The notes under the pieces were generated by a model. It did not search any database. It was not told where the DNA came from and saw nothing but the letters and a program-made list of their open reading frames with translations. A stretch of DNA of 64,000 bases. Origin: Lytechinus pictus (lineage: Eukaryota). Numbering within the stretch: the first letter of the stretch is position 1; the number at the start of each line of letters is the position of its first letter. The DNA is taken from positions 28,894,001-28,958,000 of the forward strand of contig NC_087251.1 in the NCBI RefSeq assembly GCF_037042905.1. The letters are read 5' to 3'. This document shows positions 3,001-49,734 of this stretch, one piece after another. Position numbers and translations under genes: made by a program.

Positions 3001-4826
3001 ATTTTTGACCCCATTGCCCCACCCGCGACATGGAAAATTGGGCAAAATTGACCAAAATTGAGCAAAATAATACTTGTTCAATATTTCCCCCGAAACCCCC
3101 CAAAATCAGCCGTCTACGCTCCCTGGGATGTTTTAGCATCCTAACCGATTATTACAGCGAGAATCAAGAGAATCAAGAGGATCCAGGGAGTTTGAATTTT
3201 CGACCCCCTCGCCCCACCCGCGACATGGAAAATTGGGAAAAATTGAGCAAAATAATATTTGTTCAATATTTCCCCCAAAACCCCCCCAAATCAGCCGTCT
3301 TCGCTCCTGGAATGTTTTAGCATCCTAACCGATTATTACAGCGAGAATCAAGAGGATCTAGGGTATTTGAATTTTCGACCCCCTCGCCCCACCCGCGACA
3401 TGGAAAATTGGGCAAAATTTGCAAAATTGAGCAAAATAATATTTGTTCAATATTTCCCCCGAAACCCCCCCCCCCAATCAGCCGTCTTCGCTCCTTGGGA
3501 TGTTTTAGCATCCTAACCGATTATTACAGCAAGAATCAAGAGGATCCAGGGAGTTTGAATTTTCGACCCCCTCGCCCCACCCGCGACATGGAAAATTTGG
3601 CAAAATTGGCCAAAATTGAGGAAAATAATATTTGTTCAATATTTCCCCCGAAACCCCCCCAAATCAGCCGTCTTCGCTCCCTGGGATGTTTTAGCATCCT
3701 AACCGATTATTACAGCAAGAATCAAGAGGATCCAGGGAGTTTGAATTTTCGACCCCCTCGCCCCACCCGTGACATGGAAAATTGGGCAAAATTGGCCAAA
3801 ATTGAGCAAAATAATATTTGTTCAATATTTCCCCCGAAACCCCCCCAAATCAGCCGTCTTCGCTCCCTGGGATGTTTTAGCATACTAACCGATTATTATA
3901 GTGAAAATCAAGAGAATCAAGAGGATCCAGGGAGTAAGAAATTTCGACCCTCTCGCCCCACCCGCGACATGGAAAATTGGGCAAAATTGGCCAAAATTGA
4001 GCAAAATATTATTTGTTCAATATTTTCCCCGAAACCCCCCCAAATCAGCCGTCTTCGCTCCCTGGAATGTTTTAGCATCCTAACCGATTATTACAGCGAG
4101 AATCATGAGGATCCAGGGAGTTTGAATTTTCGACCCCCTCGCCCCACCCGCGACATGAAAAATTTGGCAAAATTGGCCAAAATTGAGCAAAATAATATTT
4201 GTTCAATATTTCCCCCGAAACCCCCCCCCCAAATCAGCCGTCTTCGCTCCCTTGGATGTTATAGCATCCTAACCGATTATTACAGCGAGAATCAAGAGGA
4301 TCCAGGGAGTTTGAATTTTCGACCCCCTCGCCCCACCCGCGACATGGAAAATTGGGCAAAATTGGGCAAAATTGAGGAAAATAATATTTGTTCAATATTT
4401 CCCCCGAAACCCCCCCAAATCAGCCGTCTTCGCTCCCTGGGATGTTTAAGCATCCTAACTGATTATTACAGCGAGATTCAAGAGGATCCAGGGAGTTTGA
4501 ATTTTCGACCCCCTCGCCCCATCCGCGACATGGAAAATTGGCCAAAATTGAGCAAAATAATATTTGTTCAATATTTCCCCCTAAACCCCCCCAAATCAGC
4601 CGTCCTCGCTTCCTGGGATATTTTAGCATCCTAACCGATTATTACAGCGAGAATCAAGAGGATCCAGGGAGTTTGAATTTTCGACCCCCTCGCCCCACCC
4701 GCGACATGAAAAATTGGGCAAAATTGGCCAAAATTGAGCAAAATAATATTTGTTCAATATTTCCCCCGAAACCCCCCCAATCAGCCGTCTTTGCTCCCTG
4801 GGATGTTTTAGCATCCTAACCGATTA
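1..4826. repeat. Tandem satellite array, ~186-bp monomer (about 26 copies in the window, continues off the left edge)
   Basis: The GATCC of the BamHI-like GGATCC site recurs at 171, 356 (variant), 544, 730, 925, 1111, etc. The ORF track shows a 62-codon period. Variant monomers recur at offsets of 2999 and 1118 bp. Confidence 0.97.
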
Positions 4827-5400: not shown

Positions 5401-8400
5401 CTGTTTAATCAAAGCATGGGAAAATTATAGAATATATTTACATAAATAAATGCATTTCAATATATTCTTTTAAACAAATTGAGTGCCAACAATCACCTGT
5501 GTTTTTGCTTTTTTACTTCCTGTTACTTTTAACTGGTCCAAAGCTTAATTTGCTATCATGTACCAACAAATATTTTATTCTAGCATTTCCTACTGCCTTT
5601 CAGCATCTCATTTTATTTTACAACTATCTGATAATATATTCAAATTTCATCAACTCACTTTGACTGCATCTCCCAAATTCTGCATAAAATCTGAGTTTTG
5701 AGTGAGACCTTCCTTCAGTATTCTGTATGCTGCATCGAGGGGGTCCAGCTGATCAAAAACAATCATCATATACAAAACAGTTACATCACAAATAAATTAG
5801 CAGAGAAAAAAGCATATATCATGATATGTACTACAACAAAATCTGCCTATAAGAAGCCAAATCTCTTTGGAAATTATAATGCTGGTTGACTTTGGGAGAA
5901 ATTTCAATCAGAAGAGGTAAAAGTGCACTTTTTGTATATAATCTGATCTGAATCTAAATCATATTTAGCAGTGTCTTTTTCATGGGTTTACAGTTGGGTC
6001 TTTCATGGGTTTAAGAATCACAAAGTAACAATAACAAGTGGAACGCCTCTGGCAGTCTCGCCTGCATTACGCAATTTAATATCGCAGCAGTGCTAACTTT
6101 GAAAACTACTATAAAATAATCACTCACAAAAACATAATTCATATAATGACATAATACCACGTTCATTGACCATAAATGACATTTGAACAGAGACTTAAGA
6201 CTGTCAACTACACCCATGTCCAAGTTTTATGAACTAGATCCATAAACTTTCAGAGTTAGGATGGTAATTCAACAAATACCCCCAACACGGCCAAAGTTCA
6301 TTGACCTTTAATGACCTTTGACCATGGTCATGTAACCTGAAACTCGTACAGGATGTTCAGTCATACTTGATTACTCTTATGTCCAAGTTTTATGAACTAG
6401 ATCCATAAACTTTCAGAGTTAGGATGGTAATTTAACAAATACCTCCAACACGGCCAAAGTTCATTGACCTTAAATGACCATTGACCATGGTCATGTGACC
6501 TGAAACTCGTACAGGATGTTCAGTGATACTTGATTACTCTTATGTCCAAGTTTTATGAACTAGATCCATAAACTTTCAGAGTTAGGATGGTAATTCAACA
6601 AATACCCCCAACACGGCCATAGTTCATTGACCCTAAATGACCTTTGACCTTGGTCATGTGACCTGAAACTCAGACAGGATGTTCACTAATACTTGATTAA
6701 CCTTATGTCCAAGTTTCATGGACTAGATCCATAAGTTTTCAAAGTTATGATAGTAATTTAACAAATACCCCAACTTGACCAAAGTTCATTGACCCTAAAT
6801 GACCTTTGACCTTGGTCACGTGACCTGAAACTCAAGCAGGATGTTCACTAATACTTGATTAACCTTATGCCCAAGTTTCATGAACTAGGTCCATATACTT
6901 TCTAAGTTATGATGTCATTTCAAAAACTTAACCTTCGGTTAAGATTTTGAAAATAATTTTCCCAACATGGTCTAAGTTCATTGACCCTCAATGACCTTTG
7001 ACCTTGGTCATGTGACCTGAAACTCAGGCAGGATGTTCAGTAATACTTGATTAACCTTATGTCCAAGTTTCATGAACTAGGTCCATATACTTTCTAAGTT
7101 ATGATGTCATTTCAAAAACTTAACCTTAGGTTAAGATTTGATGTTGACGCCGCCGCCACCGCCACCGTCGGAAAAGCGGCGCCTATAGTCTCGCTCTGCT
7201 ATGCAGACGAGACAAAAACCTCAGAGTCAGTAATGGGCTTTAATAATGCTAATTCCTATATCATAATGAATACAAGTGTATGTATGTGTAACAGAAGTGA
7301 AGTTATGCAAAGACAAAACACATTTGATTGAATACATAACACAAAGAATCATATACAAGTAAGTTTAGCCCTCATAAATAAAGCCTGTCCTAGGGAATGT
7401 TTTATGAAGCCATTCATCATTTCTTTTCACTAATTGTTGAAAAGCTCCTCGAATCCTCAAATTCTATTGGTGGAGAGCAAATATTTTCAATGCAAATCTC
7501 TGGCAAGTTGTTTTATGAAACAGACCCCTGAAGGAAATGAGGACTTACCATGGTTCTATCTCCAACTGCTGCTTTACCATATTTCATGATGCTTGTCATG
7601 CCTTGCCTAAGGGCCTCTACCCAATCACCTAATCCTGGCTGATCTCCCAGTGCTTGTTGAGCTGCTAGCATGAACAACCCATAGAACTACAATCAAGATC
7701 AAGACATGTAATAAAGAATATTCAGTGATCTGATAGTCACGACCCTGTTGTATGTAGGAACTCCTCAGATTATATTGATATATTCTTTAGAAATTCATAA
7801 ATTTACATTTGCCACTCTTCACTGAGAGGACCCATTGCAAGAATTTACTATTATGGTAACTTTATCAATGACTAGTAACTACCAAAGAATTCTTGATTCA
7901 ATTGGGTGCAGCAAATTGTTATCTTTGCATGATATAGTTTCCATGATAACTTTTATGCAACAGGGAATAATTTCAATTTGGCACCTGCAGAATGTGCACA
8001 AATTATGAAAATTATGTAAAGATGAAAAAAAAAAACCTGAACATCACAGAAATCACTAGTGACTGTAAAAAGTAGTATCGGGAGAGCAATTGGGGCAAAC
8101 ACGCAACAAGTATTTACAGCTGATATGGACTCTAAAATAAGCATTGCAACTTTTGCAAGGGTTCAATATTCCTCAAAGATATGTAAATCATAATTCGAGC
8201 GCAATATCTCACCGCTCCCGAGCTTCCTCCCATTGCCTCCTCTGCTATGATAGACATGTGACCAGCCACATGACTCACTGACGTCAGCTCCTCACTCTCA
8301 ATCCAGGTCTTCATTGCTGTGGGTCAAATCAGAAAGCAGACGTGTTAAACAAATACAGGCAGGCCACTCCATTGTACAATTTGTTTGCATCACTGGGTAG

Positions 8401-14400: not shown

Positions 14401-17400
14401 TCAAATCATTCTTAACTGTTTCGGAAAGATAAATACGATAACTTTCTTTACCATTCATGAGTTAGAAAATAGCACAGTAAGCGTAAGGATAATTTTGACA
14501 TGTTTGGCTTTCCATAATTTTAGCACAGATTAGACCATGGTCTAAGTTAAACCTGACTTCAGAATATGAGCCAATAAAGTTTCGACATTTTTCACAACTA
14601 GAACTGCAAGGAAAAAAAACAATGTTAAAATAAAAATAAACTAGCCTGATTAAAAACCACACTTAATTATGTTTCTATTCTTTACAAAGATTAAAATGTA
14701 TTACTTATCTAAAGTCTTACCTAATGAACAGCAGGCAGATTCAAGAGTTTGTTTTATTTGATCCAATGATAAACCATTTTCGGCCATTGCTCCTGCCATC
14801 TTACAATAAAATACAAAGCAAAGAAAATATGATTTAATTGCCCGTCAAAAAGGAATCAACTTGAAGACAATATCAGGCTTGGGAGTGATACTCAAACAAC
14901 CAATGTATTTGATCAGTTTACCAACAATCAGGATCCGAATACTACTTTTTACACTAATCAAATGTAAATCAGATGTTGATTACTGGTTTGAGACATCCGG
15001 TTATCAAAAGTACATACATGTAACTACAATCTTTGATATTGGACAACAAAGTGTAAGATAAAATGTAAAATTTATACTAAAATCTAATGAATTCCAAACA
15101 TTGTAACTTTATCAAGACAAGACGATTATGGCCATTCTGGCGATCATGCATCAGTCATAGGCACTGTACTGGGACACTCAACCGTGTCAGCTCACTCATC
15201 ATGTGTGACCCCTGGTCGGTCGTGTGAAAGGGTCACCTTTTTGTTATTTCTGATAATCCAGGAAACTAGATTATTCAAACTATTCAACTGTTTACCCTGG
15301 TGAACCATCAAATGGTGAAAAGGGTAATCATTCCAAGCCTAGTCAATATTGAAAGTGAAGGTTTTCATCCCACTGCTGTCACCAAATTGTCAGGAGGTGA
15401 AATTAAAAGATAAGAAGTTGTATTAAACATCCTACATTTAGTAAAATTGATATAACACTATAGAACTGAATAGCAGTCATATTTTACTTTATACTTTTCA
15501 TAATCATATGCATGACCCTTTTCATGAACTAAAGATCTGACAATAATAATGTACATCAAAACCAACTTGTGACTGCATGAAATAATAGTATTTCTGGTCT
15601 GATTTCTTTCAAACTTTACTATTCTATTTTTCTTTTCTTTTTTTTCTTAGGATTTCACACATGATTCAACACTCTACTGAATATTATAGAAACATGACCA
15701 ATATCACAACTATGAGGAACTTGTCCATCATACCTTATGAATAAAGACTGTTCCAGCAAGGCCTCTGCGATCATCTAACTCTTGACCAGTGAGAGCACAA
15801 TCATCCTTGACTACTACCATCTCTACTCGTATCCCCTCAGCTTTGGCCCTCTCCAAGGCGATTCCAAAGTTGATGCAGTCTCCGGTATAATTCTTGACAA
15901 TCAATAATGTTCCAGCTTAAAATTGAGGATGTTTGTAAAGTTACACAGAGGTTAAACGTTAAATGCCACATAGGATGCCCAGTTATTCCAGTGCCACCTG
16001 TAGTGTCTTTAGGTTGTCATGAAAGTAATTATCTTGTTACAGTATCTCTGGCAATAAGATAGCCACAGAGTAAAGCTTATGATAAGCTACCAAATAATCT
16101 GTTGCAATTTACTAAGAAAGTACTATTGTTATATACACTACTCAAAAAAAGTTAAGGACCACTTTTTAAAACGTACATAAAGATTTTATACAAGGTGTTT
16201 TATTTCTGGAAATACCTCAGTACAACTGTCCTAAATGTCCTTAAACACGCTGTAATCAATTTCACGCATGGGTGGTTTCAGTTGTTGCACAATGTCTCTC
16301 GCATCACTGCACATCCTGAAAAGTGGGCCCCGAGGGGTATCAGCTACCGACATGAAGTGGTAAAAACGAATGTCTGAGTGTCTTTCAGGCAGTTCAGTAA
16401 CGAGTGTGACCACCTCCTGCAGCAATAACGGCTTCACAGCGCTGTCTCATGGAGCTGATGAGGCGATTGATGTCTCTGACGTCCAGTGCATCCCATGCAG
16501 CCTCCAGAGCCACACCCAGCTGCTGCAGTCCAAGTGGATGGGCTTCGAGCTGGTCGAGACTCCTCCCCATCATGTCCCAGACGTGCTCTATCGGGTTTAA
16601 GTCCGGGGACCTCGCTGGCCACTCCATACGCTCAATCCCCTGGCCCTCAAGGAACTCGGTCACCACCCTAGCTCGGTGGGCACGGGCATTGTCATCCATG
16701 AAAATGATGTTTTGTCCCACATTTTCTGCAAATGGCACCACTATAGGTTCAAGGACCTCATCCCTGTACCTCACTCCTGTCATTGCTCCCCCTGGGACCA
16801 CGTAGAGACGAGTACGGTTGGCGTAGGTGATGCCTCCCCACACCATGACGCTGCCTCCCCCATAACGGTCATGTTCTGCAATACAGGGGTCTGCAAATCT
16901 CTCTCCTGGTCGCCTCCAGACTCTCGAACGTCCATCATTGTGGTCAAGGGAAAATCTGCTCTCATCTGTGAACAGAACTCTACGCCATTGCTGTCTGGTC
17001 CATCTGACATGCTCCCGGGCCCAGTTGAGACGAATTCTTCTGTGAGCAGGGGTGAGTGGGACACACTGAGCTGGCCGTCTGGCATGCATATTGGCTCTGT
17101 GAAGTCGGTTACGGATTGTTTGAGTGGAAACAATCACTCCAGTTGCTGCAGCGAAGTCATTGTTGAGGCGGTGTGCACTGTGAAAGCGGTTGCGGAGGCT
17201 GAGATTCGTCAAGTAGCGATCATCTCTAGGGGTTGTCGAAACTGGTCGGCCACTGCGGGGTCTCTCGGAGTATAGCCCTGTCTCTCGGTGTCTTTGATTT
17301 GCTCTGCTAATGACACTGTGTGACACGCCCATCATTCTGGCTACTCTTCGCTGACTGAGGCCAGCTTCCAGCATCCCTAGGGCTCTGGCTACATCTGTTT

Positions 17401-20400
17401 CACTTAGGTGGTGTCTTGGCATTGCTGTTGTAGGCAAGTTGTTGATTGTACAGACTAAAGACGGAAAATGCTTTGGAAGACACTTGTCTTATGGCCCACT
17501 GCAATGATGCCAGAGACATCATGAAAGAACTGCATGTGTGAAATTGATGTCATTGTGTTTGATGGCATTCTGGACAGCTGTATCTTGGCATTGCTATTGT
17601 CAGCAAGTTGTTGATTGTAGAGACTAAAGACAGAAAATGCTTTGGAAGCCACTTTTGTACGGGCACATTGCAATGATGCAAGAGACATGAAAGAACTGCA
17701 TGTGTGAAATTGATTTCATTGAGATTTGCAGACCCCTGTATTGCAGAACATGACCGTTATGGGGGAGGCAGCGTCATGGTGTGGGGAGGCATCACCTACG
17801 CCAACCGTACTCATCTCTACGTGGTCCCAGGGGGAGCAATGACAGGAGTGAGGTACAGGGATGAGGTCCTTGAACCTATAGTGGTGCCATTTGCAGAAAA
17901 TGTGGGACAAAACATCATTTTCATGGATGACAATGCCCGTGCCCACCGAGCTAGGGTGGTGACCGAGTTCCTTGAGGGCCAGGGGATTGAGCGTATGGAG
18001 TGGCCAGCGAGGTCCCCGGACTTAAACCCGATAGAGCACGTCTGGGACATGATGGGGAGGAGTCTCGACCAGCTCGAAGCCCATCCACTTGGACTGCAGC
18101 AGCTGGGTGTGGCTCTGGAGGCTGCATGGGATGCACTGGACGTCAGAGACATCAATCGCCTCATCAGCTCCATGAGACAGCGCTGTGAAGCCGTTATTGC
18201 TGCAGGAGGTGGTCACACTTTTTACTGAACTGCCTGAAAGACACTCAGACATTCGTTTTTACCACTTCATGTCGGTAGCTGATACCCCTCGGGGCCCACT
18301 TTTCAGGATGTGCAGTGATGCGAGAGACATTGTGCAACAACTGAAACCACCCATGCGTGAAATTGATTACAGCGTGTTTAAGGACATTTAGGACAGTTGT
18401 ACTGAGGTATTTCCAGAAATAAAACACCTTGTATAAAATCTTTATGTACGTTTTAAAAAGTGGTCCTTAACTTTTTTTGAGTAGTGTATATATACATAGA
18501 AACAAATCATTCTATTCCCTGGTATGACTGTAGTTGGTGAACTGATGAATTGGAGAAACAGGCTGAGTGGACACTTGGATGCCAGGCTTTAATAAAGAAA
18601 CAGACACCTAAATTCTCATCACCAAGTCCTAGTCATTCTTCTTACATAAATGAGCGCTTGAATGTGAGTAGAGAACGCTCCACCAGTGCTTGCTATTTGG
18701 TCACATGAGGATATGTACCTAAATTAAAAATATTTATTGACTATCAAATGGAAATTTGTAATTGTAATGTTTACATTTGGGTGTGAAATTCATCAGCATG
18801 CTAAAAGAAAACACATTATTTTAAAGTATAAAGTAATGCAAAAGTAACAATATCAACAAGAAACATGAACATTTAAATGATTATAATGAAAGATAAAACA
18901 AGTTTTTTTTAGCCTTTAATAAATATAATGCATAAATTCTGAGCAGGTATTTGTGAGAAGTATTAGTTTGTGTAATCAATTTAGCTGCCTGTACTGTATG
19001 TATGGTGTTCATTGCGCCACTTGCATTGCATGGATGTTTACAAAGTTATCTGACTGAAATGTGACTGCATCATCTTATTCTAATTAATGTCATTGGCATT
19101 TTAATCAAACCTGATTGTCCATCCAATATCATTTAAATCAATACCATATTTGTTACAATACAGATGGTAACCAACATCTGCATATTTCAAATTAAGTAAA
19201 TAGATTTAACAAGTGGAATGCCTCTGGCCGTCTCACCTGCATCACGCGATTCAATATAGCAGCAGTGCTGATTTTGAAAACTACTATAACTCGCACAAGA
19301 TGTTCAGTGATACTTGGTTACTCGTATTTCCACGTTTTATGAATTAGACCAATACACTTATAGAGATATGATGGCAATTCAACAAATACCCCCAACGTGG
19401 CCAAAGTTCTTTGACCTTACATGACCTTTGACCTTGATCATGTGACCTGAAACTCGCACAGGATGTTCAGTGATACTTGATTACTCTTATGTCCAAGTTT
19501 TATGAACTAGACCAACACACTTTCAAATTTATGGCTGTAATTCAACAAATACCCCAATTTGGCCAAAGTTCATTGACCCTAAATGACCTTTGACCTTGAT
19601 CATGTGACCTGAAACTTGCACAGGATGTTCAGTAATACTTGATTACTATTATGTCCAAGTTTCATGAATCAGATCCATAAACTTTCAAAGTTATGATGGT
19701 AATTCAACAGATACCCCCCAATTCGGCCAAAGTTCATTGACCCTAAATGACCTTTGACCTTGGTCATGTGTCGTGAAACTCATGCAGGATGTTCAGTGAT
19801 ACTTGATTGACCTTATGTATAAGTTTCATGAACTAGGTCCATATATTTTCTAATTTATGATGACATTTCAAAAACTTAACCTTAGGTTAAGATTTTGATG
19901 TTGATTCCCCCAACATGGTCTAAGTTCATTGACCCTAAATGACCTTTGACCTTGGTCATGTGACATGAAACTCAAGCAGGATGTTCAGTAATACTTGATT
20001 AACCTTATGGCCAAGTTTCATGAACTAGGTCCATATACTTTCTAAGTTATGCTGTCATTTCAAAAACTTAACCTCAGGTTAAGATTTGGTGTTGACGCCG
20101 CCGCCGCCGTCGGAAAAGCGGCGCCTATAGTCTCACTCTGCTATGCAGGTGAGACAAAAATTAAACGAGACTCAAATTTGTCATTTAATAATGAAATATT
20201 ATTTAACTTTACAAATAGCTTTACAAACAAACTTTACAAAGGGCCTTAAGCAACACCTCAAATAAAACCATCATGCTATAAAGCAGAGCAAAATCCAGGA
20301 AATGAATTTTTGAGGCAGGCCTCTGGGTCAAGACTGGCCTAATAATTCTCAGGTATTACTTCTGGGACCTGTTTCATCAAACTTATTACAGAAACAAACT

Positions 20401-23251
20401 TGCAATAACAGTTTAAAGCTACTGAATTCATTCGATATGATTGGCTGAGAATTAACTTGTTAGAAATTGTGCCTTGTTATTATAACAAATCTGTATAAGA
20501 CAGGACTCTGAACCCATTGCATATTACCTGGATGATCTCGACCAACAGCTCGTATAGCTGCTAGTATTGAGCTGGTAGGGGGTGAAGCAAACACAGATCC
20601 AGCGATAGCACCACTCAACATTCCACGTCCAACATAACCTACAACATATCACAAGAGCAATAAGATGATCACTGTAGATGATGAACGCAAATGATGGAAG
20701 GAAAAAAAAAAATAAACCCAATGAATAACAAAAATATATTGGTACACACACACACAATGTAGAGTATGCACATTCTCCACTCCCTGGGGAATATTTTCAG
20801 CCAGTCACCATTGAGGCACAGAGTTGCACACAGTACTGGACAAGTTGTTATGACTTTCACATCCTATCGGGTACCCATTTAGCAGAGAGAGTGGCAGAGT
20901 GTGGAGTAACACCTTGCCAAAGGATGCTATGCCGTGGTAGGATTTGAACACACGACCCTCTCATTACAAGGAGAGAGTCAGAACCACTACACCACGGCTC
21001 TTCCATTGGTTGAAAATCAAGTTGTGACTGATTCTTAGACTTGTGTTTAATTACAATTATTTCTGTAACGGTCTTCTGGGCATAATGAATGCAAAACATT
21101 GGTCTCTTATTCTTCCCATTAAAGGGTGTATCTCACGGAGCAATGAATGCAGGCAATCTTTTTTTTTTAGTTTACCAACTTTTATGATGAGCGTTGCACA
21201 TCCTACCAAACTGCCTTCAATTCCTTTGGAAGTGCACAGGGACAAAATATATGTTTATCCCTTCAGGGTCAAAATACAAGCTAAATTGTGATTCATTTCT
21301 GTACAGAGGTTAAAGGCAAATATTAACTTAAGATTTTATTAAAAAACCCTCATTTTCATACTTGAAATGGTGTCAATATTTGAGTAATAGTTCAGGAATA
21401 TAAGGCAAAAAAATGGATGCAAACAATTTTGTCTGTCCAGAAAAGCATGTATAAATAAATGTATATAAAGGGAGGTAAAAAGTGTGCGGAATAGCATGGT
21501 GTTCAACTTCTAATGACTCCCGGGGGGGCCACTTCCATTCACGAGTGGATACCATGCGCGACCATGGGGTCTCGAAAAGCACCCTAAACACGTAATTTCC
21601 ATATTCTGAAAATGCACCCCTTAACAAGTATTGGCGCGTGAAACCCTACCCTTAACAAGTATTGGAAACAAAACGATACTCTTGGCAAATATTCCCTGTT
21701 ATGAACCCCTAAACAAGTACAGGAATGTTTTATTGTTACGGTCGTCGGCTTTACCTTATTTGGTTTAGTACGACCCCACTTTCTACACCTCGCGCAAATC
21801 GGACTCTAAACACGAAGTGTTGGGGCAAAATGGACATCCTTTATAAAACATTTTAATTTTGTTTTATCATTCCCGCAAATTCGACCCTAAACACGTAATT
21901 TTCCTAGCGAAATAGACACCCTATTTTCATTATTTTTGTGTTTTTGACACCCTTATCACGTTACGTAGGTAACGTGCCCTATCGTGAAAAGGACATCCTT
22001 TTTACGTGTTTTTTTGGTCGCGCATGGTATCCACTCGTCAATGTAAGTGGCCCCCCCGGGTAATGACTGTGCCCCCCTGCATACACATGTATGTATGTGT
22101 ACGAGATGGTGTGTGTAGGGAAATGTGTGCACAGTAGCAGCCTGCACCGACGGTGGACCTAGTGTCTGTATGGAGACAGCAGGACAGAGTGGGTCCATTT
22201 CACCATTTCAATTTATTTTCTGAAGATGTTTATACTAATATCCCTGATTGTAACCCATCACCTGCGTTTCATGAAAAATTACTCAGGTGATAGCAGCTTT
22301 CTTTAAGTCGTGGTATTTTTAGGAGACCTATATTAATTAAAGGTCAAGTCAACCCCAGGAAAATGCTGACTTGAATAAATAGAGAAAAATCAACCTAGCA
22401 TAGTGCTGAAAATTTCATCAAAATCGGATGTAAAATAAGAAAGTTATGACATTCTAAAGTTTCGATTATTTTTCACAAAACAGTGCTATGCACAACTAGG
22501 TGAGTCAGTCGATGATGTCCATCACTCACTATTTCTTTTGTGTTTTATTGTTTAAATTATACAATATTTCATTTTTTTATAGATTTGACAATAAGGACCA
22601 ACTTCACTAAACCATATAGTATTAAACAATGCTAATTCCATATGTTCAGGGAGGAATTAATTGTTGTATCACTTGACAATGAGGAGAAAATTAGAATATT
22701 TCATATTTCGTATAATAAAATACAAAAGAAATAGTGAGTGGATGACGTCATAGTCTTCTCATTTGCATACCAGCAAGGATGTGCATATAACTGTTTTGTG
22801 AAAATATGCGAATCTTTAAAATGTCATAACTTTCTTATTTTACATCCGATTTTGATGAAATTTTCAGTGTTATGCTTGTTGGATTTTTCTCTTTTTATTT
22901 AAATCAACTTTTTGTTGGGGTGGACTTGTCCTTTAATACTTCAAAGTACAAATTGTATGACTCCACTCCCTCCTATTTGTCCATCAGCTTTTTACAGTAG
23001 TTTCTGTATTTATTCAAATTTCCATCTCAACAATCCTTACCTGCATGGGCTGGTTCATGGCCAGAGCCTCCCCCAGAAAGTAACGTCACCTTTCCACTCT
23101 TTTTAACATCATTCAAATCATCTCGCAAAACCACTCGGTGACCAGCTAATTTGGTGATACCTGGTGTTATAGAAATTAGTCCTTCTATCGCTTCATCAAC
23201 GCATCGATCGACGTCATTTGTAAGCTTTTTGGTGGGTTGAGTAGTAGTCAT
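5245..23251 (-). CDS. TKFC: Triokinase/FMN cyclase (dihydroxyacetone kinase, fused DhaK-DhaL), 13 coding exons, 589 aa
   Basis: Manual splice model: complement join(23041-23251, 20528-20638, 15734-15915, 14721-14799, 13770-13894, 12731-12905, 11156-11278, 10296-10436, 9008-9142, 8213-8316, 7549-7686, 5659-5748, 5245-5400) = 1770 nt. All introns are GT-AG with compatible phases. DAK motifs present: [73 protein letters not shown]. Confidence 0.95.
5659..5748 (-). CDS. TKFC: TKFC coding exon 12 (LDPLDAAY...DAVK)
   Basis: gatcag acceptor, gtgagt donor, 90 nt in phase 0; continues the GDRTM-LD motif. Confidence 0.88.
6033..7218 (-). mobile_element. Non-autonomous Helentron-type element (HINE / DINE-1-like) with internal ~120-bp tandem repeats, copy 1
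   Basis: Subterminal inverted repeat GTCTCGCCTGCAT near one end pairs with ATGCAG(A/G)CGAGAC at the other. Also a local hairpin, a (GCC)n microsatellite, T-rich termini on the minus strand and ~8 internal ~120-bp units. The same family occurs at 19208, 23466 and 36286. Confidence 0.75.
7549..7686 (-). CDS. TKFC: TKFC coding exon 11 (FYGLFM...[11 protein letters not shown])
   Basis: gtag acceptor, gtaagt donor, DhaL GDRTM motif. Confidence 0.93.
8213..8316 (-). CDS. TKFC: TKFC coding exon 10 (AMKTW...[10 protein letters not shown])
   Basis: acag acceptor, gtgag donor, MGGSSG motif. Confidence 0.92.
8821..8896. repeat. (ATATT/ATATC/ACATC)n pentanucleotide microsatellite
   Basis: Directly visible. 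Confidence 0.85.
9008..9142 (-). CDS. TKFC: TKFC coding exon 9 (...[22 protein letters not shown])
   Basis: ccag acceptor, gtacgg donor, DhaL nucleotide/Mg-binding LD..GDGDCG motif. Confidence 0.93.
10296..10436 (-). CDS. TKFC: TKFC coding exon 8 ([10 protein letters not shown] plus inter-domain linker)
   Basis: atag acceptor, gtaag donor, 141 nt in phase 1/1; D.PT.A.AWP motif. Confidence 0.88.
11156..11278 (-). CDS. TKFC: TKFC coding exon 7 ([24 protein letters not shown])
   Basis: ttcag acceptor, gtgagt donor, FMTSLEM.G.SLT motif. Confidence 0.93.
12196..12283 (-). mobile_element. Probable tRNA-derived SINE head fragment
   Basis: Minus strand has a B-box-like GTTCGAGTCC and a weak A-box-like segment; no complete cloverleaf. 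Confidence 0.35.
12731..12905 (-). CDS. TKFC: TKFC coding exon 6 (...[19 protein letters not shown]...)
   Basis: gatag acceptor, gtaagt donor, LVNNLGG motif. Confidence 0.93.
13052..13246 (+). mobile_element. 5'-truncated SINE body with short repeat tail
   Basis: GTCAGACCAAAAGACGTTAAAAGATGGGAGTTGCTGCTACCCTGTTTGGCGTTCAACG resembles, from memory, the MetaSINE central domain. It ends in AATAAA plus (GGATTTTC)n. Confidence 0.45.
13770..13894 (-). CDS. TKFC: TKFC coding exon 5 ([14 protein letters not shown]...GIHGEAG)
   Basis: atacag acceptor, gtgagt donor; contains the catalytic His motif GIHGE. Confidence 0.93.
14721..14799 (-). CDS. TKFC: TKFC coding exon 4 ([15 protein letters not shown]...)
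   Basis: AAG acceptor, gtaag donor; matches the DAK AGA.AE.G.SL motif. Confidence 0.88.
15734..15915 (-). CDS. TKFC: TKFC coding exon 3 ([13 protein letters not shown]...[12 protein letters not shown])
   Basis: AAG acceptor, gtatga donor; KNYTGD and RRGLAG motifs. Confidence 0.93.
16394..17422 (-). CDS. Tc1-like transposase, DD34E, intact ORF (342 aa from ATG 17422)
   Basis: N-terminal paired-like HTH and GRP motif (RSGRP). Catalytic motifs [15 protein letters not shown] and SPDLNPIE, with 34 residues between the second D and the E. No stops or frameshifts. Confidence 0.95.
   Translation of the reverse strand: MPRHHLSETDVARALGMLEAGLSQRRVARMMGVSHSVISRANQRHRETGLYSERPRSGRPVSTTPRDDRYLTNLSLRNRFHSAHRLNNDFAAATGVIVSTQTIRNRLHRANMHARRPAQCVPLTPAHRRIRLNWAREHVRWTRQQWRRVLFTDESRFSLDHNDGRSRVWRRPGERFADPCIAEHDRYGGGSVMVWGGITYANRTRLYVVPGGAMTGVRYRDEVLEPIVVPFAENVGQNIIFMDDNARAHRARVVTEFLEGQGIERMEWPARSPDLNPIEHVWDMMGRSLDQLEAHPLGLQQLGVALEAAWDALDVRDINRLISSMRQRCEAVIAAGGGHTRY
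17721..18228 (+). pseudogene. Inverted 5'-truncated duplicate of the C-terminal half of the same transposase
   Basis: ORF 17704-18228 is identical to the minus-strand transposase from RFADPC onward except for two residues. It lacks the DNA-binding domain and the first catalytic D. Confidence 0.9.
19208..20160 (-). mobile_element. HINE/DINE-1-like element, copy 2
   Basis: Same termini (AACAAGTGGAATGCCTCTGG ... ATGCAGGTGAGACAAAAA) and the same ~120-bp internal units as 6033-7218. Confidence 0.75.
20363..20510. mobile_element. Short degenerate MITE family (relatives near 7390-7530, 12600-12700, 61218-61355)
   Basis: Shared core AAGCTACTGAA.TC....TGATTGGC and imperfect GGG.CC.GTTTCAT / ATGAAAC.GG.CCCTG ends. 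Confidence 0.4.
20528..20638 (-). CDS. TKFC: TKFC coding exon 2 ([21 protein letters not shown]...)
   Basis: tgtag acceptor, gtaat donor; GYVG.GML and VFASP motifs. Confidence 0.93.
20760..21000 (-). mobile_element. tRNA-derived SINE
   Basis: Minus strand reads GAGCCGTGGTGTAGTGG (A box) ... GTTCAAATCC (B box), followed by a SINE-like body (CCTTTGGCAAGG...AAATGGGTACC). The 3' boundary is approximate. Confidence 0.7.
21519..22060. mobile_element. MITE with CCCGGGGGGGCCACTT termini and 8-bp TSD (TAATGACT)
   Basis: ~45-bp imperfect TIRs; TAATGACT at 21511-21518 and 22061-22068. Confidence 0.9.
22341..22932. mobile_element. Kolobok-like non-autonomous DNA transposon, TTAA TSD
   Basis: TTAA|AGGTCAAGTCAACCCCA ... 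TGGGGTGGACTTGTCCT|TTAA, with long imperfect subterminal inverted repeats. Confidence 0.8.
23041..23251 (-). CDS. TKFC: TKFC coding exon 1 ([12 protein letters not shown]...[12 protein letters not shown])
   Basis: ATG at 23251 with an acceptor (tttttag) 8 nt upstream, implying a further non-coding 5' exon; donor gtaagg at 23040. Confidence 0.93.
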
Positions 23252-23465: not shown

Positions 23466-24016
23466 AGTTCATTGACCTTTGACCTTGGTCATGTGACCTA
23501 AAATGCGCACAGGATGTTCAGTGATACTTGATTACTCTTATGTCCAAGTTTTATGAACTAGACCAACATACTTTCAAAGTTATGATGGTAATTCAACAAA
23601 TACCCCCAATTTGGCCAAAGTTCATTGACCCTAAATGACCTTTGACCTTGATCATGTGACCTGGAACTTGCACAGGATGTTCAGTAATACTTGATTACTA
23701 TTATGTCCAAGTTTCATGAATCAGATCCATAAGCTTTCAAAGTTATGATGGTAATTCAACAGATACCCCCAATTCGGCCAAAGTTCATTGACCCTAAATG
23801 ACTTTTGACCTTGGTCATGTGACGTGAAACTCATGCAGGATGTTTAGTGATACTTGATTAACCTTATGGCCAAGTATCGTGAACTAGGTCCATATACTTT
23901 CTAAGTTATGCTGTCATTTCAAAAACTTAACCTTAGGTTAAGATTTGGTGTTGACGCCGCCGCCGTCGGAAAAGCGGCGCCTATAGTCTCACTCTGCTAT
24001 GCAGGTGAGACAAAAA
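23466..24016 (-). mobile_element. HINE/DINE-1-like element, copy 3 (one end missing)
   Basis: Same internal units and GCCGCCGTCGGAAAAGCGGCGCC...GAGACAAAAA end; lacks the AACAAGTGG end. Confidence 0.72.
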
Positions 24017-24115
24017 TAGAAAAAAATGGCGAAAGAAAAGAAAGATAACTAAAATATGAAAGAAGCTATTAATACTTTCAAAGAAAAAAAGCTAAAAAAA
24101 AGCAGTGGAAAAAAT

Positions 24116-27100
24116 CACTCCTAGTACCAATGAGGTCCAAACATTAACATGTATGGACCTCATAGGCGACATTACCCAAATTATGGGTTGGACAATGCTG
24201 TTCTGATTTCCAACCCAAGACTTTGGTAAATGTACACCTTAATACAAGTTAGAGTTATCCGATATACCTTTCATTCGGACGGCAAACCTTTATTTAGTTG
24301 TAAAAATAGTTGAAATTAAAATCGATTATTGTTAAACTTACATTTCAGGCCCTTTTTGTTGATTTTCGGTGAGCGTTCCACACAGCTGCGACGAGTGATC
24401 AACTCCGAAGTGATACGCGTACTGGTCAGCTGATCGGTCAGGTGATCGGTTGGTTATCTTTTTGTCAGACGTTCATAATTTATGTTAAGCGTATCAATCT
24501 TCAGTATCTTGATTTCAAAGCATCAGTATTGCAGAGAAAAGTCATTATTGATTGGAATCAGTGGCGGGGGGGGGGGGGGTTGGGGTGAGCATTTCTGCCC
24601 GTTCCCCCTTTTGAGATTTATAGTAAACATTTTGGAATTAAATATTTTGTTAATACTAGTTATGTGCCCCCCCCCCTCCCTTATGAGAATCACAGCATTA
24701 TTTGTAATGGGGATATTTCGTTCATATTCTTTTCTCTTTTTTGCCTTTTTTTTGCTTGTCAAATTTTACTGGGAACAAATTAACAATATGACTTTCTATA
24801 CATCACTTTTAGGGACAAACTTTTTATGGGGGTGGGGGCTTGCCAAATATAACGGTGGAAAAAGTGACCTTCTTTTTTAGTGACAACTTTATAAAAAAAT
24901 TGTCAAATTTTACGCGAGACAAAATGACCTTCGATCATTGCTATAGTTAAAACTTTTTTTTTTTTTTGGGGGGGGGGGTTGCCAAATATCACGTGGACAA
25001 AATGACTTTCCCTTTTCTTATTTTTGTGGGGGGGGGGGGGGGCTTGCCGAATATTACGCGGACAAAATGACTTTCATTTTGAGTGACCATTTTTTTTTTA
25101 ACTTGTCAAACTTTACGCGAGACAATATAATGACCGTTTTTTTTTTTTTAGTAAGAACCTTTTTTGGGAGTTGTCAAATTTTACTTGAGAAAATTCACCC
25201 CGCCCCCCCCCCCCTACTTAATTTGGAAAATCTTGGATGCGCCTCTATATAGTTTGAATCATAATGAAGATTAAGATCATGCGTATAGATAGCTTACATC
25301 CACGGCAGAGGCGTAAACCGCCGGGGGCATGCAGGCTGGCCCTTGATCCCCGGTCCAGTGGATTTCACACAAAAAAAACGGGATAAGAGAAAAGGAATGA
25401 AGGAAGGAAAAGAAAGAAAGAAAGAAAGACAGAAAGAGAAAGGGAAGAGAAATAAAAGGCCATAAAAAAGCAAAAGGAAAGAAAAATGCATGCGAGAATA
25501 ATTCCAAATGTTATGTCAAAATCTATTGCAAAATTGATATTTGTAATAAAAGTGACAAAGGTTTTGCTCGCTCGCCTCTTCATCTGGTAGGCGCGTAGCT
25601 AGGGGCGGTGCCCCCCGAAAAGGTCCCTCCCCCCAAAAAAAAATAAGGAGGGAATAGAGAAAATAAAAAGCGAAATGAGAAAAGGGGGATGTATATAACT
25701 TAGTTTATAATTGTTTTTCCTTTTTTTGGGGGGAAGGGGTCAAAACATTAACGTTATGTTTTTCTATAAATAGGTCTAATTGCTAAATATCCAGAGATAT
25801 CGAGACCCACCTGCTGATATTGCACTGGGGGTACACGATGGAAGGGTTAGGCCTAGGGGCCCCCGAAAGTTCTACAACCAAGATAAAAAAGAAATGAAGG
25901 GAATTAATGAAAAGAAAAGGAAAAGTGTAAGTTAAGATATCTATCTCAAATTTAGATTTGCACGAAAAGTTTTTTTCTCGCTTGCTTCACTCGCTTGGAA
26001 CATATAAACTTTATTCCCACGCGCCATGTATGCCTACATTGGCCCTCTTTCTTTCTTTTATTTATTATTTTTTTTACTCATCACGCTACCGTACTGCCAC
26101 ACACGGGTTTGCCCTAATGATCGTGGACAATCATAAAAAATATAATTTTCATACCATGTGACTGGGAAATTTTTGGCTCCACCCCCCCCCCCCCCCTCGA
26201 TCCCTGTATCGATTTTGACTTGATAGGGGCCTATACCTGATGGAATTAGCTTCATTCAATATAAAATCATAACGGATAGAACGCCTTGAATACAGGCCAA
26301 ACAGCCTAACGACATTGCCGTGTCACGTGACAACCAGTATTAAACGAGAATGTGCACAACCCTATGGCGTCAAAATTTGCCGCAAAAGTTGAGCAAGTTC
26401 TGGACAAAAAGGCTTCAATACCCCAAGAAAAGCACTCCTAGTACCAATGAGGTCCAAACATTAGCATGTATGGACCTCATAGGCGACAATGCGTTAAAAA
26501 CAGGTTAGAACTTCTAACCGTACTGTTTCCTGCACCCAAGTATGATATTACTCCCAAAATATGAGTTTTGTCCTCGTTTGTTTATCATTTATTAAAAGAT
26601 TGCCCATTAAATATATTCCTATTCCTAATTTGAATTTAATAAAATAAAGGGAAACTTACATCTGAGTCATTTTTCGATCTTTTTTTGGCAGTCAGTCCGG
26701 TCACCGTCGAGTGCGATCAAAGCGGTATGAAGCTGATTTTCAGATCACGTGATACGTGTGGTCATCACCTGATCAATCGACTATCCTTTTTTTACCACCG
26801 CAACAATTATAAATTTTATTATAAAATATATATAGAATAAATTATTGCATAATATTATGTATATTTCTACAATTAAAAAATATTTTGTGATATAAATTTA
26901 ATATTTGACGTAAAAATCGCTATTGAACAAAATATTTATTAAAAAATAAAAAATAAAACAAAATAAAAAAGCCTTGGACACAGTGCAAAAAACCTAACGA
27001 TTTGGCCGCGTTGTTAACAACTATCGTAAGGGGCGCTTTATTTATAAATAAAAAAAAATGTACAGCTGTCTACCGCGACGTGGTTTGTCGCAAGATTTGG

Positions 27101-28050: not shown

Positions 28051-28265
28051 ATACATCTATATGCCTGCACCCCATCCCAAAATAAAACTTGGATAAATCA
28101 TGGTATGGGGACTGGGCCCTGGGGACCCTGGGAACCACGGCCTTCGGCATAGATCAAAAGTAAATCACGGGAGTAAAGTAAATCATGTGGGCATCAACGA
28201 AAAGACAATAGACAAGGAGAGCGCATAGACCTTTATCAAATTGTTATCCGAAGTAAATGACTAAT

Positions 28266-31200
28266 TAGTAGGGGAGAGAGATAGGGTTCCCATGCACCCG
28301 AATGATATATTTTTTTAACCTACATTTTTGTAATCCGTAAGATGTGTAGTGAATGAATTTTGATGTTCCCAGAACGAAATATTGTCCCATGGGGTTCAAA
28401 TTCAAGATGGCGTCCAAAATGGCCGCCATATATATTCATGGGATTTGGTTTTTCGTACATAGATTCCGACACAAACATTCATTTGCCACAAAATTAGTGT
28501 CATATGAAAGATAAATGATTTTTCTACAAGTCGAAACTATTCATAAGTGATGAAAAGCTAATTCGGCTGAGATTTTGATAAGAAAAGTGCAATTTTGAGA
28601 ATTTTTTCCAAAAAATTGAAAATTTGTGAAATACATGATTTACCATAAAGCTAAAGAAAATTAAGGCATCGCCTCAAAAATTTCTAGAAAACTTTCCTAA
28701 TATACAACTATTAAGTGGACGAAATTCCAAATTGATATCGTTTTTAGTCACAAACTTATAATGTCTCAAACTTGAAAATTCAATTTTCAGAAATTTAGCT
28801 TTTTTACTGCATATCGGAGACTTGGATACACTAATGTATATTGTCACATTTTCAACCCAGAAAATGGAGATAGGCCTTAATAAAATGCGAAATTATCTAT
28901 TATTTTGTTGGTAGAATTTACTACAATCCCTTTATTCTACAATATAAAGTCGGGTGATTTAGTTTTTGAAAGAATTAAGACTTTTGGTCAAAATTTGTAT
29001 GTTTTTGGTAAAAAAAATGCACATGCATTGTTATTAATCAGATTTATTATGAATATCAGTAATAAATGCACAATCTCAACATTCGATATGAAAGAGGATG
29101 TATCAACGAGAATATTGGCAGGCTTCATGCCACCATGAGTATCTTCATTTGCTTTAGAAAGAAGGAAAATATGCTGAATGTATTAAGCGATTTTGCGCTA
29201 AAGTGAGGCCAAAAAGCAACCTCGGTGTGGCAGTCACACCCATGAAAACTATTGCAAAGTGATGAATGGTATGCCATTCAAATAATACAATAGCTTGGAT
29301 CAGCTTCTCGCATCGATTGTGTTGGTATGACTAACACACCTTAATGTACAGTATGTAATGTGCATCGTAATAGAAATGTATCTGATTCAGAAGGATGTAA
29401 AGGCAAAAAAAGTGTTTCTGTTACATCATAAAGAATTTATTTAATTGAGTCTTTTGAAAACAGTTATCATACACTAGCACTGCAGGTGCTGACACATCAA
29501 TACACAACTGAAAGGAACATGTCAAAGCTACCTCCACCTTATCTGTATTTTGAATTTATGGCCTGTATTCCAAAATCAGGTTTATTTTCCAACACGTTCT
29601 AACTCTTTTCTAAATTTATGAAGAGCCAAAATTCTGTTTATTGTATATATCTTATGTTTACAACTCTGTTCCGTTTGCTTTCATAATGAAGGAAAAAACC
29701 TCAATTATCATTCTCAGACAACTATGAACCGTTTGGGGGTCAATATTAATGAAATTGGCTCTCCACGTCAGTAAAAGTCATTGGGGGTAATTCTGTCGCC
29801 AGTCAAAAAGTGATCATAATTAGAAAACCATAACTTAGTTCAGATGACCGAAGATCTGACATGATATCTGATGATCGTTTACCAAAACAAAAGAAATCAC
29901 GATCAAAATCAAAATGTCGAAAGAACTAACCAATCAGCGAAATGGACACAGCAAACGATACTATCACAGATCATGATCATTATCAGTCTAAAGACAGTCT
30001 ATCCAACTTTGCATAATTTGACACAATACACACCAATGGGCCACACACAGTTGTAAATTCAGAAGGTACAGTAGCATTTGCTAACATTTACATATGCCCA
30101 CAGAGTCGGTCAACATAAGCTCTACCTAAGAGTTGACTCACGTGCAAGTACTAAGACCCCACTAAGACTATCATAGTACGTACGCCAAGGAAATATAAAG
30201 TTCAAAGTGGGAATCATTAGTGAAACAAACACCAGTAAAACTTGAAGCTTATGGAGAGATTCCAATTAAATGTAAAGGTACACTTGACATAAAATGTTAC
30301 AGTCCGAAATGGTCAACACAGACATTCTATGTACCAGATGTCAAGGTTTCAGCTATCCTTGTGTTGTTAGGTTGCACTGACCTTGTAATTATCACAATTC
30401 ACTCAATGTACAATTATGACACACCTACACCTAACCCTAAACCTAAACAATCACCTATCACGCGTGCTAAGGGTCTCTAACAAGCATTTTCAGAGCACTT
30501 CGATGCTATTGGTAGTTTCAAAGGAAAAGCGATGCTTCATGTCAAGGACATCGCTAAACCTACCATAGACGCACCACGCAAGTGCAGCACACTAATTGAA
30601 GGACAAGATCAAGATCAACGTGGAACACAACAAGAAAATGTACTTGTTCATGGAGACGGCAAAGCAAGATTAAGACTCGGTGTTCAACAGCTCCAAGTGC
30701 ACAATCAAGAAAGAAGCTATCAACTTCTTTGGCTCCAAGTGCACTAGATCAGATATCTACCCAGATCCTAGCAAGGTAGAAGCCAACACATTACCCAAGT
30801 ACTATTACCCAAGGACAAAGAGGATGTTCAGAAATGCCTAGTATTGTTCAAATACCTAGCAGCATATGTTCCTTATTTGTGGGAAAAGTCAGCATCACTT
30901 CGATAACTTCTCCACAAGAAAGTACTGTTTATCTGGGACGATGATCATGAACATTCCTTGAACAGCCTGAAATGTGCAGTATCATCAGGTGCATGTCTAC
31001 AGTTCTATGACCCAGAGAGAGAGAGAACTGTCGAGATAGATACATCAATGAAAGATCTAGGAGCATGCCTGCTTTAGGAAGGTAACCTGTTGCGTTTGCA
31101 TCCAAAGTCTTTCCACTGCACATTCCAACTACTCAAACATAGAGGGAAATCTTAGTCCTAATGTTTGGTATCAAACGCTGCTATAATATCTGTTCGCGAA

Positions 31201-34200: not shown

Positions 34201-34307
34201 TTGGGAACATCAAAATTCATTCACTACACATCTTACGGATTACAAAAATGTAGGTTAAAAAAATATATCATTCGGGTGCATGGGAACCCTATCTCCCTAC
34301 CAGACTA
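28266..34307. mobile_element. Long-TIR DNA element, Academ-like (TAG...CTA ends, 3-bp TSD AAT)
   Basis: AAT|TAGT at 28263-28269 and ACTA|AAT at 34304-34310. Inverted arms of ~570 bp (~28277-28844 vs ~33732-34296) show few mismatches. No transposase inside. Confidence 0.7.
30060..32350 (+). pseudogene. Decayed Ty3/Gypsy pol remnant (protease, partial RT, RNase H, integrase)
   Basis: Fragments include YDPERERTVEIDTS.KDLGACLL (RNase H), LHLGHMGIESTRRLARET (integrase Zn domain) and WNIKHITSSPHYPRSNGLAQRMVRTVK...SPAEMLFGRPIRT (integrase core). Many stops, frameshifts and deletions; no LTRs recognised. Confidence 0.85.
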
Positions 34308-34310
34308 AAT

Positions 34311-48329: not shown

Positions 48330-48742
48330 AATATTTCATCCCCTCTTCCTCCGTAACACTCGATGCCAGCAATGAGCCGGTGGCGTGTGAGTGGTTGGTG
48401 GGCTGTATTATCAAGCATTATACATGCACGCTGCATCGAGCTCTGTCTTCCCATTCCTTTCCTGTGATACTTTGACCTATTTCAAGAGGCATTTGGGAAG
48501 ACACATCAGCATGGTAGACGATGCTTTGTAAAACATTCGCATGTGTCGTCTGGCAATTGAGAAGCAGGAGACCTGAACGTACAGCTGCAGCATTACCCCA
48601 TGCAATGGAATGTATCGCTCGTTAATTATTGCACGCCGCGAGATCTCCCATGTGCCCTCGCTGATTGTACCGGCAGCTGATATGATATTTCCACACAGAT
48701 AACGCGTTCCTGTGACTCTATAGATACAGGGGCAAACAGAGA

Positions 48743-49600: not shown

Positions 49601-49734
49601 GTATAGTATACCTAGCAAATTAATTTTAAACAGACAGATTTCATATTCCTTTCTTAATATGCTAAAATAAAGTAATTTTAGCTTCATTGATTCAATCATC
49701 TTGTACGAAAGCCATTTCCAATTTAAGACTACTT

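Follow-up and report, generated by a model that had tools for sequence, protein, structure and literature searches.

A Tc1 element with two right ends and a whole transposase gene in a TKFC intron of Lytechinus pictus

The window that we analyzed, a 64,000-nucleotide stretch of the Lytechinus pictus genome, contains a rearranged Tc1 element of the DD34E type that has two right ends (16136..18486, minus strand, 2351 bp) and lies in an intron of the TKFC gene. We think it probable that the element represents a single, rearranged member of a young DD34E Tc1 family of ~1.9 kb that arose through a template switch of the type proposed for Goblin, and that its hairpin is a by-product with little effect on the family. 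Compared with the parent element, which measures about 1896 bp and has an imperfect left end, the copy is missing 310 bp of the left end and carries 765 bp of its own right end inverted in place; both of its ends are right ends and the family's native left end is gone. The locus offers a clean snapshot of the gain of long terminal inverted repeats (TIRs) in a Tc1/mariner element, in which the parent, the lost end, the copied end and the direction of copying are all readable and the transposase is whole.

Self-comparison aligned 16136-16901 with the reverse complement of 17721-18486, giving two arms of 766 bp each with zero gaps and exactly three mismatches, at 16401/18221, 16402/18220 and 16809/17813. 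This agrees with the sequence-only reading, which had described an inverted copy of the 3' part in place of the native 5' end and about three mismatches between the arms. A blastn search with the arm pair returned E = 0.0 and a separate repeat search recovered the same pair as 99% complementary and 819 nt apart; the pairing is far beyond chance. The arm at 16136..16901 (minus strand) is the native 3' end, comprising the 3' half of the ORF, the 3' UTR and the right TIR, and has the family letters at the three mismatches. The arm at 17721..18486 (plus strand) is the copied one, an inverted duplicate of the 3' 766 bp that begins at codon 175; it holds the three derived letters (17813, 18220 and 18221) and a predicted ORF in which a 150-aa C-terminal transposase fragment is still readable (17776..18228, plus strand). 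The 819-bp spacer between the arms (16902..17720, minus strand), which would form the hairpin loop, is made up of the 5' half of the ORF and the retained portion of the native leader. This leader contains tandem units of 166-169 bp (17411..17721, minus strand) that are 87% alike and in part similar to the inner TIR (72%). The new junction (17720..17722) truncates the second unit, while family copies run on into another unit; the single base 17721 fits the native leader and the copied arm alike, so that the microhomology is 1 bp and not longer. The dinucleotide TA stands outside both ends of the element, at 16134..16135 as a probable target-site duplication within a short TA run and at 18487..18488, where a contig of public run X7 meets the flank after 242 non-element letters. 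TA was thus found on each side, yet within TA runs, and these runs lengthen the arm match by 6 bp. The earlier description of perfect TIRs with TA flanks stands as to the TA on both sides and the match between the arms, which makes the TIRs of this copy 766 bp long, but has to be corrected in that both ends are right ends.

The transposase ORF (16394..17422, minus strand) is open for 342 aa and encodes an N-terminal HTH DNA-binding region and the triad D153-D244-E279, with 34 residues separating the second D from the E (DD34E). The Pfam domain DDE_3 scored 69 bits against a cut-off of 28.6, and HTH_Tnp_Tc3_2 (67 bits) and HTH_38 (31 bits) each exceeded their cut-offs, bearing out the claim that a complete transposase lies inside the foldback. 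The arm contains 508 of the 1029 nt of the ORF, matching the statement that about half of it is duplicated in antisense. The protein is 99.4% identical to a collected protein (P0123); neither the exact transposase nor the arm fragment was present in the protein collection searched (0 of 2). One substitution, R84H, is private to this copy; it was considered as damage to the transposase and dropped because the column is not conserved.

The host intron (15916..20527, minus strand) is 4612 bp long, of which the element makes up 51%. The host exons encode a Dak1 domain on the minus strand and are consecutive along the profile (1-46, 48-79, 83-143 and 171-211), the first coding exon seen lying at 23042..23251 (profile 1-46), the exon upstream of the element at 20528..20638 (48-79) and the one downstream at 15734..15915 (83-143), all on the minus strand. 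The end of the element is 220 bp from the TKFC acceptor. Its earlier placement 220 bp from the acceptor of exon 3 was right as to distance and intron, with "exon 3" to be read as the third coding exon and upstream exons being possible. Candidates for such further TKFC exons were seen near 24340 and 26660. Record 14 of run X7 has the right flank starting again right where the TIR ends, and the insertion site appears empty in this run, so the insertion is probably polymorphic rather than a fixed host locus. It is probably also unselected.

The family was compared in the contigs of four public runs (X1, X7, X8 and X13), across which it is ~99% identical; it is a young Tc1 family, as had been proposed. 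Record 19 of X8 carries the native left end: 17611-17660 is followed by 11 letters of other sequence, by 74 bp that resemble the TIR, with 6 differences, by 86 further letters of other sequence and then by the terminal 30 bp without a difference. Both joints are the same in X13, and the 11-letter joint also terminates a loose end in X7. The two TIRs of the parent are thus identical over the terminal 30 bp and similar in their inner part. In three of the four runs the leader continues into another repeat unit at the point where the window turns into the copied arm, and in three of four the junction bin has just the depth that an absent junction contig would give (41.5, 7.56 and 216.4 against 41.49, 7.57 and 216.38). 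A junction-spanning contig was found neither in X1, X8 and X13 nor among the X7 records listed (52 records in X7). The depth of the family in X7, ~20 times that of the flank, is not usable as a copy number. The flank at 18519-19200 is uncovered in X1, X8 and X13, which proves nothing about the species and was therefore not taken as evidence of another one.

Under the explanation that we favor, excision with gap repair or a one-ended cut would have broken the element at its left end or close to it, leaving a DNA end that carried the terminal ~30 bp common to both TIRs. By invasion of the right TIR, on the same element or on the sister chromatid, this end would have been extended inward by 766 bp of copied sequence. 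Joining of the copied end to the leader within the tandem repeat, at 1 bp of homology, would have followed, and the ORF would have been spared because it lay downstream of the break. A template switch from the TIR on the left to that on the right followed by end joining is the model proposed for Goblin (PMC3814204). The direction of copying can be read from the three mismatches, at all of which four of four runs have the left-arm letters. Residue 290 is D (D290) in both arms, which share C at 18069 (G at 16553), while E is found there in four of four runs and in 12 of 12 collected proteins of at least 97% identity. Because the arms share a variant absent from all 12 close relatives, a copy made in cis, through a switch of template in the course of gap repair, appears to be favored. 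The cis argument draws on this one site, and D290, found as well in P0003 and P0121, two relatives at a greater distance, could mark a subfamily of this genome. The overlap at the junction also counts against a Goblin-type origin, 1 bp here versus 6 bp in Goblin.

An origin from two copies is unlikely, though it is the nearest competitor. Nearby copies in opposite orientation, produced by a local hop or by sister-chromatid transposition, would have lost the DNA between them and the product would have moved to the intron. Such a model was offered for Rpmar49 and Rpmar17 (PMC4678618), alternative transposition is described as yielding inverted repeats of Ac (bioRxiv 10.1101/2020.01.07.897926), and a second copy derived from the same element would share D290 too. 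This origin nevertheless requires two steps, and the flanks look like a plain TA insertion, on the right down to the TIR end in the X7 record, so that it would apply only if the dimer had formed elsewhere.

The hairpin in the TKFC intron is a prediction. The predicted fold has 764 of 766 arm-arm pairs and -1857 kcal/mol, and its stem, with perfect runs of 265, 406 and 92 bp, spans the DDE-coding half; other fold-backs in TKFC introns are far shorter, their longest perfect stems being 48 and 24 bp. Unspliced TKFC RNA would be able to form this near-perfect stem, and from the intron position and the folding both arms are expected on one TKFC transcript as double-stranded RNA. The shared orientation with TKFC is immaterial, because an inverted repeat folds on either strand. 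The sequence-only reading had every TKFC pre-mRNA folding into a dsRNA of ~770 bp; the predicted stem agrees with such a fold, and the site looks empty in one run. On the template-switch explanation, the unspliced RNA of carriers could fold into the 766-bp stem as a by-product, its likeliest fate would be splicing and decay, perhaps with editing, and the family would be little affected.

That the intronic hairpin instead silences the Tc1 family, which is compatible with either origin, seems to us doubtful. The hairpin is nearly identical to its family targets, and the long perfect runs cover the catalytic half of the ORF and exceed those of the other TKFC-intron fold-backs. Intronic RNA, on the other hand, is nuclear and short-lived, and the apparently empty site again counts against a silencer. 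Dicer-substrate RNAi is described as working in Lytechinus variegatus embryos (PMC11230266), and read-through Tc1 RNA of C. elegans folds back and triggers RNAi according to a review (PMC3878927); the maize cases, however, are described as depending on plant RdRP and RdDM pathways (bioRxiv 10.1101/2020.01.07.897926), and in one study of Mu killer it was the plants without silencing that were distinguished by read-through from the adjacent gene (PMC3440606). Our search of the sea-urchin endo-siRNA literature found no data on endogenous hairpins, and the 24 public runs listed included no small-RNA library. We hold to be just as doubtful the wider idea that a Tc1 family which recently crossed between marine animals keeps making mobile, sometimes coding copies with two right ends, of which the intronic ones would act as host-driven hairpin brakes. 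If true, animals would have a transposon killer that was mobile and coding in its own right and polymorphic enough for a comparison of carriers with non-carriers, in a sea urchin with functional RNAi. If siRNAs came from the hairpin, the locus would show how a DNA transposon that has newly arrived is first recognized by its animal host, and the presence/absence allele would serve as a natural experiment; otherwise the locus is one rearranged copy of modest interest.

It is very improbable that the inverted arm is an assembly artefact, produced by a read that was chimeric or by a repeat that was wrongly traversed. The junction is spanned by no contig in the four runs (for X7, among the records listed), but a rare allele is expected to be missing from the contigs of other samples. 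Of the three sites at which the arms differ, one is a change of CpG to CpA and at the other two a CpG has been replaced, the pattern that genuine mutations would give. The arm ends precisely with the TIR, where distinct intron sequence resumes, which is not the behavior of fold-back chimeras; the 1-bp overlap at the junction is too small to mislead an assembler, and X7 confirms the right flank. Scarcely credible is a normal family structure in which every copy has 766-bp TIRs including the 3' half of the ORF: it was first suggested by contigs of ~2.3 kb with 99%-identical transposases, some reaching 2314-2592 bp, but these are the longest of many and may include flank, the different native left end is directly visible in X8 and X13 and its 11-letter joint in X7, and a family-wide layout is refuted for X1, X8 and X13, so that comparison with canonical copies, as the sequence-only reading had advised, shows the two-tailed form not to be the norm.

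Replacement of a 5' end by the 3' end is already published for mariner elements (Rhodnius Rpmar17/49; Aedes Goblin), and the intact ORF is what differs here. As in Rpmar49 and Rpmar17 of Rhodnius prolixus (Filee et al. 2015, PMC4678618), an inverted 3' part replaces the different 5' end of the parent, seen here in X8 and X13, and the long TIRs contain transposase sequence; the longest copy of Rpmar17 is given as >1700 bp against a 1319-bp parent, and ours is 2351 bp against about 1896 bp. Those are described as DD34D mariner elements, deleted, non-autonomous and present in many copies, whereas ours belongs to the DD34E Tc1 type, has its ORF whole and is consequently not classed as a MITE. The Aedes aegypti MITE Goblin, of the Tc1/mariner element Ozma, likewise had its left end rebuilt from the right subterminal region, but is reported as 213 bp with 54-bp TIRs and without an ORF (PMC3814204), in contrast to the 766-bp arm and intact ORF found here. 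The Drosophila MITEs Dromar7, 11, 28 and 36 also have long TIRs from the internal sequence of one end, although the 5' part replaces the 3' part in the published account; its authors use the word "elusive" for how such rearrangements arise (Wallau et al. 2014, PMC4161770). "Extended TIR" copies of Galileo had internal sequence copied from end to end as well, but belong to the P superfamily (PMC3573991).

Transposase sequence is duplicated in inverted form over 766 bp, including 508 coding nt, and in this the element also resembles the maize killers. Mu killer is described as an inverted transposase duplication with two like ends that is open to a host promoter (PMC3440606), and the Ac killers p1-ww-id1/id4 as having the same inverted layout and access to a host promoter (bioRxiv 10.1101/2020.01.07.897926). 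In the same accounts both differ in that 5' ends are duplicated and the transposase is partial or fractured, and they are defined by demonstrated plant siRNAs and heritable silencing, while our element is known from its sequence. The product with two right ends may be moved by the family transposase. Engineered Mos1 and Mboumar-9 elements resemble it in that identical right ends replace an imperfect pair and differ in being in vitro constructs; relative to the natural pair, two right ends are reported to have made Mos1 26 times more active and Mboumar-9 3 times less (PMC4505599), opposite outcomes that make the effect here unpredictable.

Searches for relatives returned 14 related loci of 28-44% identity in JGI metagenomes, 1 related locus of 28% identity in viral contigs and 8 weak matches in prokaryotes, none a close family member. 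No inverted repeat as long as the 766-bp arms was seen in a set of 15 loci (L001-L015), the longest being palindromes of ~356 bp. In viral contigs the pattern of the junction was matched 0 times. The literature searched, mostly open-access main texts, yielded neither a Tc1 with two right ends and an intact ORF nor this sea-urchin family. A promoter scan with a bacterial model, unsuited to this host, gave chance-level results. An SB-like element of Lytechinus variegatus is given as 1816 bp with a 340-aa product and a 27-bp TIR (PMC9777934); it differs in size from the present element and is set apart by that description only. The family transposase is 91% identical to a sea-spider transposase, and by this sequence likeness the family looks horizontally mobile.

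The element at 16136-18486 on the minus strand (2351 bp) is a real, young Tc1 copy in which the 5' end was replaced by the element's own 3' end. The sequence-only reading had described a 766-bp foldback with about three mismatches, TA at both outer ends and an intact transposase, and our analysis agreed on each count: 16136-16901 pairs as reverse complement with 17721-18486, ungapped, with exactly 3 mismatches and an arm-to-arm distance of 819 bp; TA is present outside both ends; and the minus strand carries a 342-aa ORF (17422 to 16394) with Tc1 domains and the DD34E triad, of whose 1029 nt the arm takes in 508, the half of the ORF said to be duplicated. The transposase ATG is 1287 bp from the right end of the element. 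The leader upstream of the ATG carries a tandem repeat (17411-17721) of 166-169-bp units, composed of inner-TIR-like sequence, leader and first codons, and at the new junction (17720-17722) a single base is compatible with both sides. Because the ORF is whole, the element is not a MITE. It has the same build as published derivatives with a 5' end replaced by the 3' end, and no description of a Tc1 combining this replacement with a whole ORF was found in the literature searched.

The youth of the family is borne out by transposases 97-99% identical to that of the element, which are common in public assemblies. Between 0.84 and 0.89 of the words of the one-arm stretch are present in 14 of the 24 sequencing runs among those listed, spanning five coded organism labels and marine metagenomes. 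We compared four of the 24 runs (X1, X7, X8 and X13), all of which consist of contigs, over 16902-19200. In all four the spacer is joined to the arm at 16902, which is the native interior of the ORF, and in X1, X8 and X13 the leader runs on beyond 17715 into a further 166-bp repeat unit. No contig crossing the junction was indicated in these three runs, where bin depth is the value expected without one; this result draws on inspected records for X1 (2 of 2) and X8 (4 of 4) and on depth for X13, and X7, with 52 records, lies outside it. Record 19 of X8 contains a distinct native left end, the original 5' end of the family, with 11 other letters, a 74-bp part resembling the inner right TIR (6 differences), 86 unlike letters and an unchanged terminal 30 bp, and joints in X13 match it; the earlier claim that the native 5' end had been replaced by an inverted copy of the 3' end is thereby upheld. 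The parent would therefore have measured about 1896 bp, counting one pass of the repeat loop, relative to which this copy lacks 310 bp and has an extra 765 bp. These comparisons show that the two-right-end layout is not the family norm; uniqueness does not follow, since contigs lose rare variants. The depth of the repeat loop relative to the main depth (0.59, 0.65 and 1.33) suggests that leader repeat number varies between family copies, and the family is multi-copy in X7, because seven contigs leave the TIR end into different flanks. Among the X7 contigs listed, none showed a junction of the right-right kind, although rare joints may have been lost from them.

Over 337 aa the transposase shares 91% identity with a protein of the sea spider Nymphon striatum, and a starfish protein matches an F-box exon of the host at 59%. 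On sequence grounds the family was likely transferred horizontally in recent time; near-identity under several organism labels agrees with this, the labels being coded and possibly those of close relatives or mixed samples. Two related proteins, P0147 and P0134, seem to combine two subfamilies, one having a front that resembles the element and a back that resembles P0004, the other a front that resembles P0128 and a back that resembles the element; they may be recombinant copies or misassemblies. A distant Tc1 relative (39%), locus L003, has a 164-bp, 93% inverted pair at 2499-2659 and 3259-3422; one of these arms falls within the transposase match, and the second lies upstream of the TIR of that relative.

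The four runs agree with the left arm at each of the three mismatches, which makes the right arm the derived copy; of the differences, one is a CpG to CpA change, and in each of the remaining two a CpG has been replaced. The letter common to both arms at 16553/18069 encodes D290, where all four runs have E, as do all 12 compared proteins at least 97% identical; D occurs in two relatives at 89-91%. This one shared site favours copying of the arm from the same element.

A template-switch-type account has been proposed for the left end of Goblin, an Aedes Tc1/mariner MITE (PMC3814204), and its proposed steps can be applied here. In the simplest account, a DNA end carrying the terminal bases common to both TIRs would have invaded the right TIR, copied inward for 766 bp and then been end-joined to the remaining leader inside the tandem repeat; because rejoining fell upstream of the ATG, the ORF would have survived along with 299 bp of leader. 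An origin from two copies with deletion, the model put forward for the Rhodnius mariner lineages Rpmar49 and Rpmar17 (PMC4678618), is possible. We judge an assembly artefact unlikely, given that the two arms are not identical, that the arm ends precisely with the TIR and that genuine flank sequence follows. Two right ends raised Mos1 activity 26-fold and lowered that of Mboumar-9 3-fold (PMC4505599), and by analogy the layout may or may not aid the mobility of this element.

A nearby F-box exon, 100% identical to a protein of Lytechinus variegatus, 91% to one of Diadema and 46-50% to snail proteins, marks the host as a Lytechinus-like sea urchin. The host gene is TKFC, since four exons on the minus strand align to successive parts of the Dak1 profile. 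The intron that contains the element is 4612 bp long, 51% of it being element; 2041 bp separate the element from the donor and 220 bp from the acceptor, the latter being the distance the sequence-only reading had given. X7 alone among the four runs extends over the flank, where record 14, a contig of 609 bp, meets the window at 18487 from its own base 243, with 4 differences across 367 bp, and its first 242 letters match nothing in the compared stretch. This would fit an empty allele, in which case the record would begin some 24 bp into the next exon. Two candidate upstream exons at 26660-26760 and 24340-24460 (minus strand), each followed by a GTAAGT donor, are possible alternative TKFC first exons.

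The proposal that TKFC pre-mRNA forms a dsRNA of about 770 bp stands as far as prediction goes, the modelled fold of the TKFC strand pairing 764 of 766 arm positions at -1857 kcal/mol. The perfect runs of the stem are 265, 406 and 92 bp, against 48 and 24 bp for the longest perfect stems of the other TKFC intron fold-backs, two older MITE-like elements in the preceding intron (22336-22937 and 21519-22060). That such a hairpin silences the Tc1 family in trans we consider quite improbable. Intronic RNA is nuclear and short-lived, which weighs against it, and none of the 24 runs listed was a small-RNA library. The element resembles the maize transposon killers in structure, and a silencing role here would be a prediction from the modelled fold; the killers are discussed in one preprint through the plant RdRP and RdDM pathways (bioRxiv 10.1101/2020.01.07.897926), and one study of Mu killer describes flanking-gene read-through transcripts in plants where silencing had failed (PMC3440606). 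However, Dicer-substrate RNAi is reported to function in L. variegatus embryos (PMC11230266), and in C. elegans RNAi is described as triggered when read-through Tc1 RNA folds back (PMC3878927); the long predicted fold and these precedents make the idea testable rather than absurd.

The window holds a second long inverted pair, 28265-28844 and 33733-34308, whose 580-bp arms match at 96.6% and lie some 5 kb from each other. Additional partial copies occupy 29342-29594, 33055-33467 and 33466-33731; no target duplication was evident for this pair, and an integrase-like fragment (31811-32218; a weak rve_3 match below cut-off) lies between its arms. A satellite array of ~187-bp units (1-4826) continues past the window start and has a higher-order structure, sequence 3000 bp apart matching at 98%. 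A dispersed repeat that contains 163-bp tandem units occurs, all in one orientation, at 6033-7218, 19288-20160, 23473-24017, 36286-37391 and 41060-41309; two copies are in TKFC introns or the upstream region, one sharing the intron of the element. Broken non-LTR retrotransposon pieces are found at 38236-41060 (minus strand, RVT_1 match at 38239-39522) and 43501-44004 (plus strand). Plus-strand exons of an F-box/LRR gene at 48716-49606 and 55403-56320 match L. variegatus LOC121418648.
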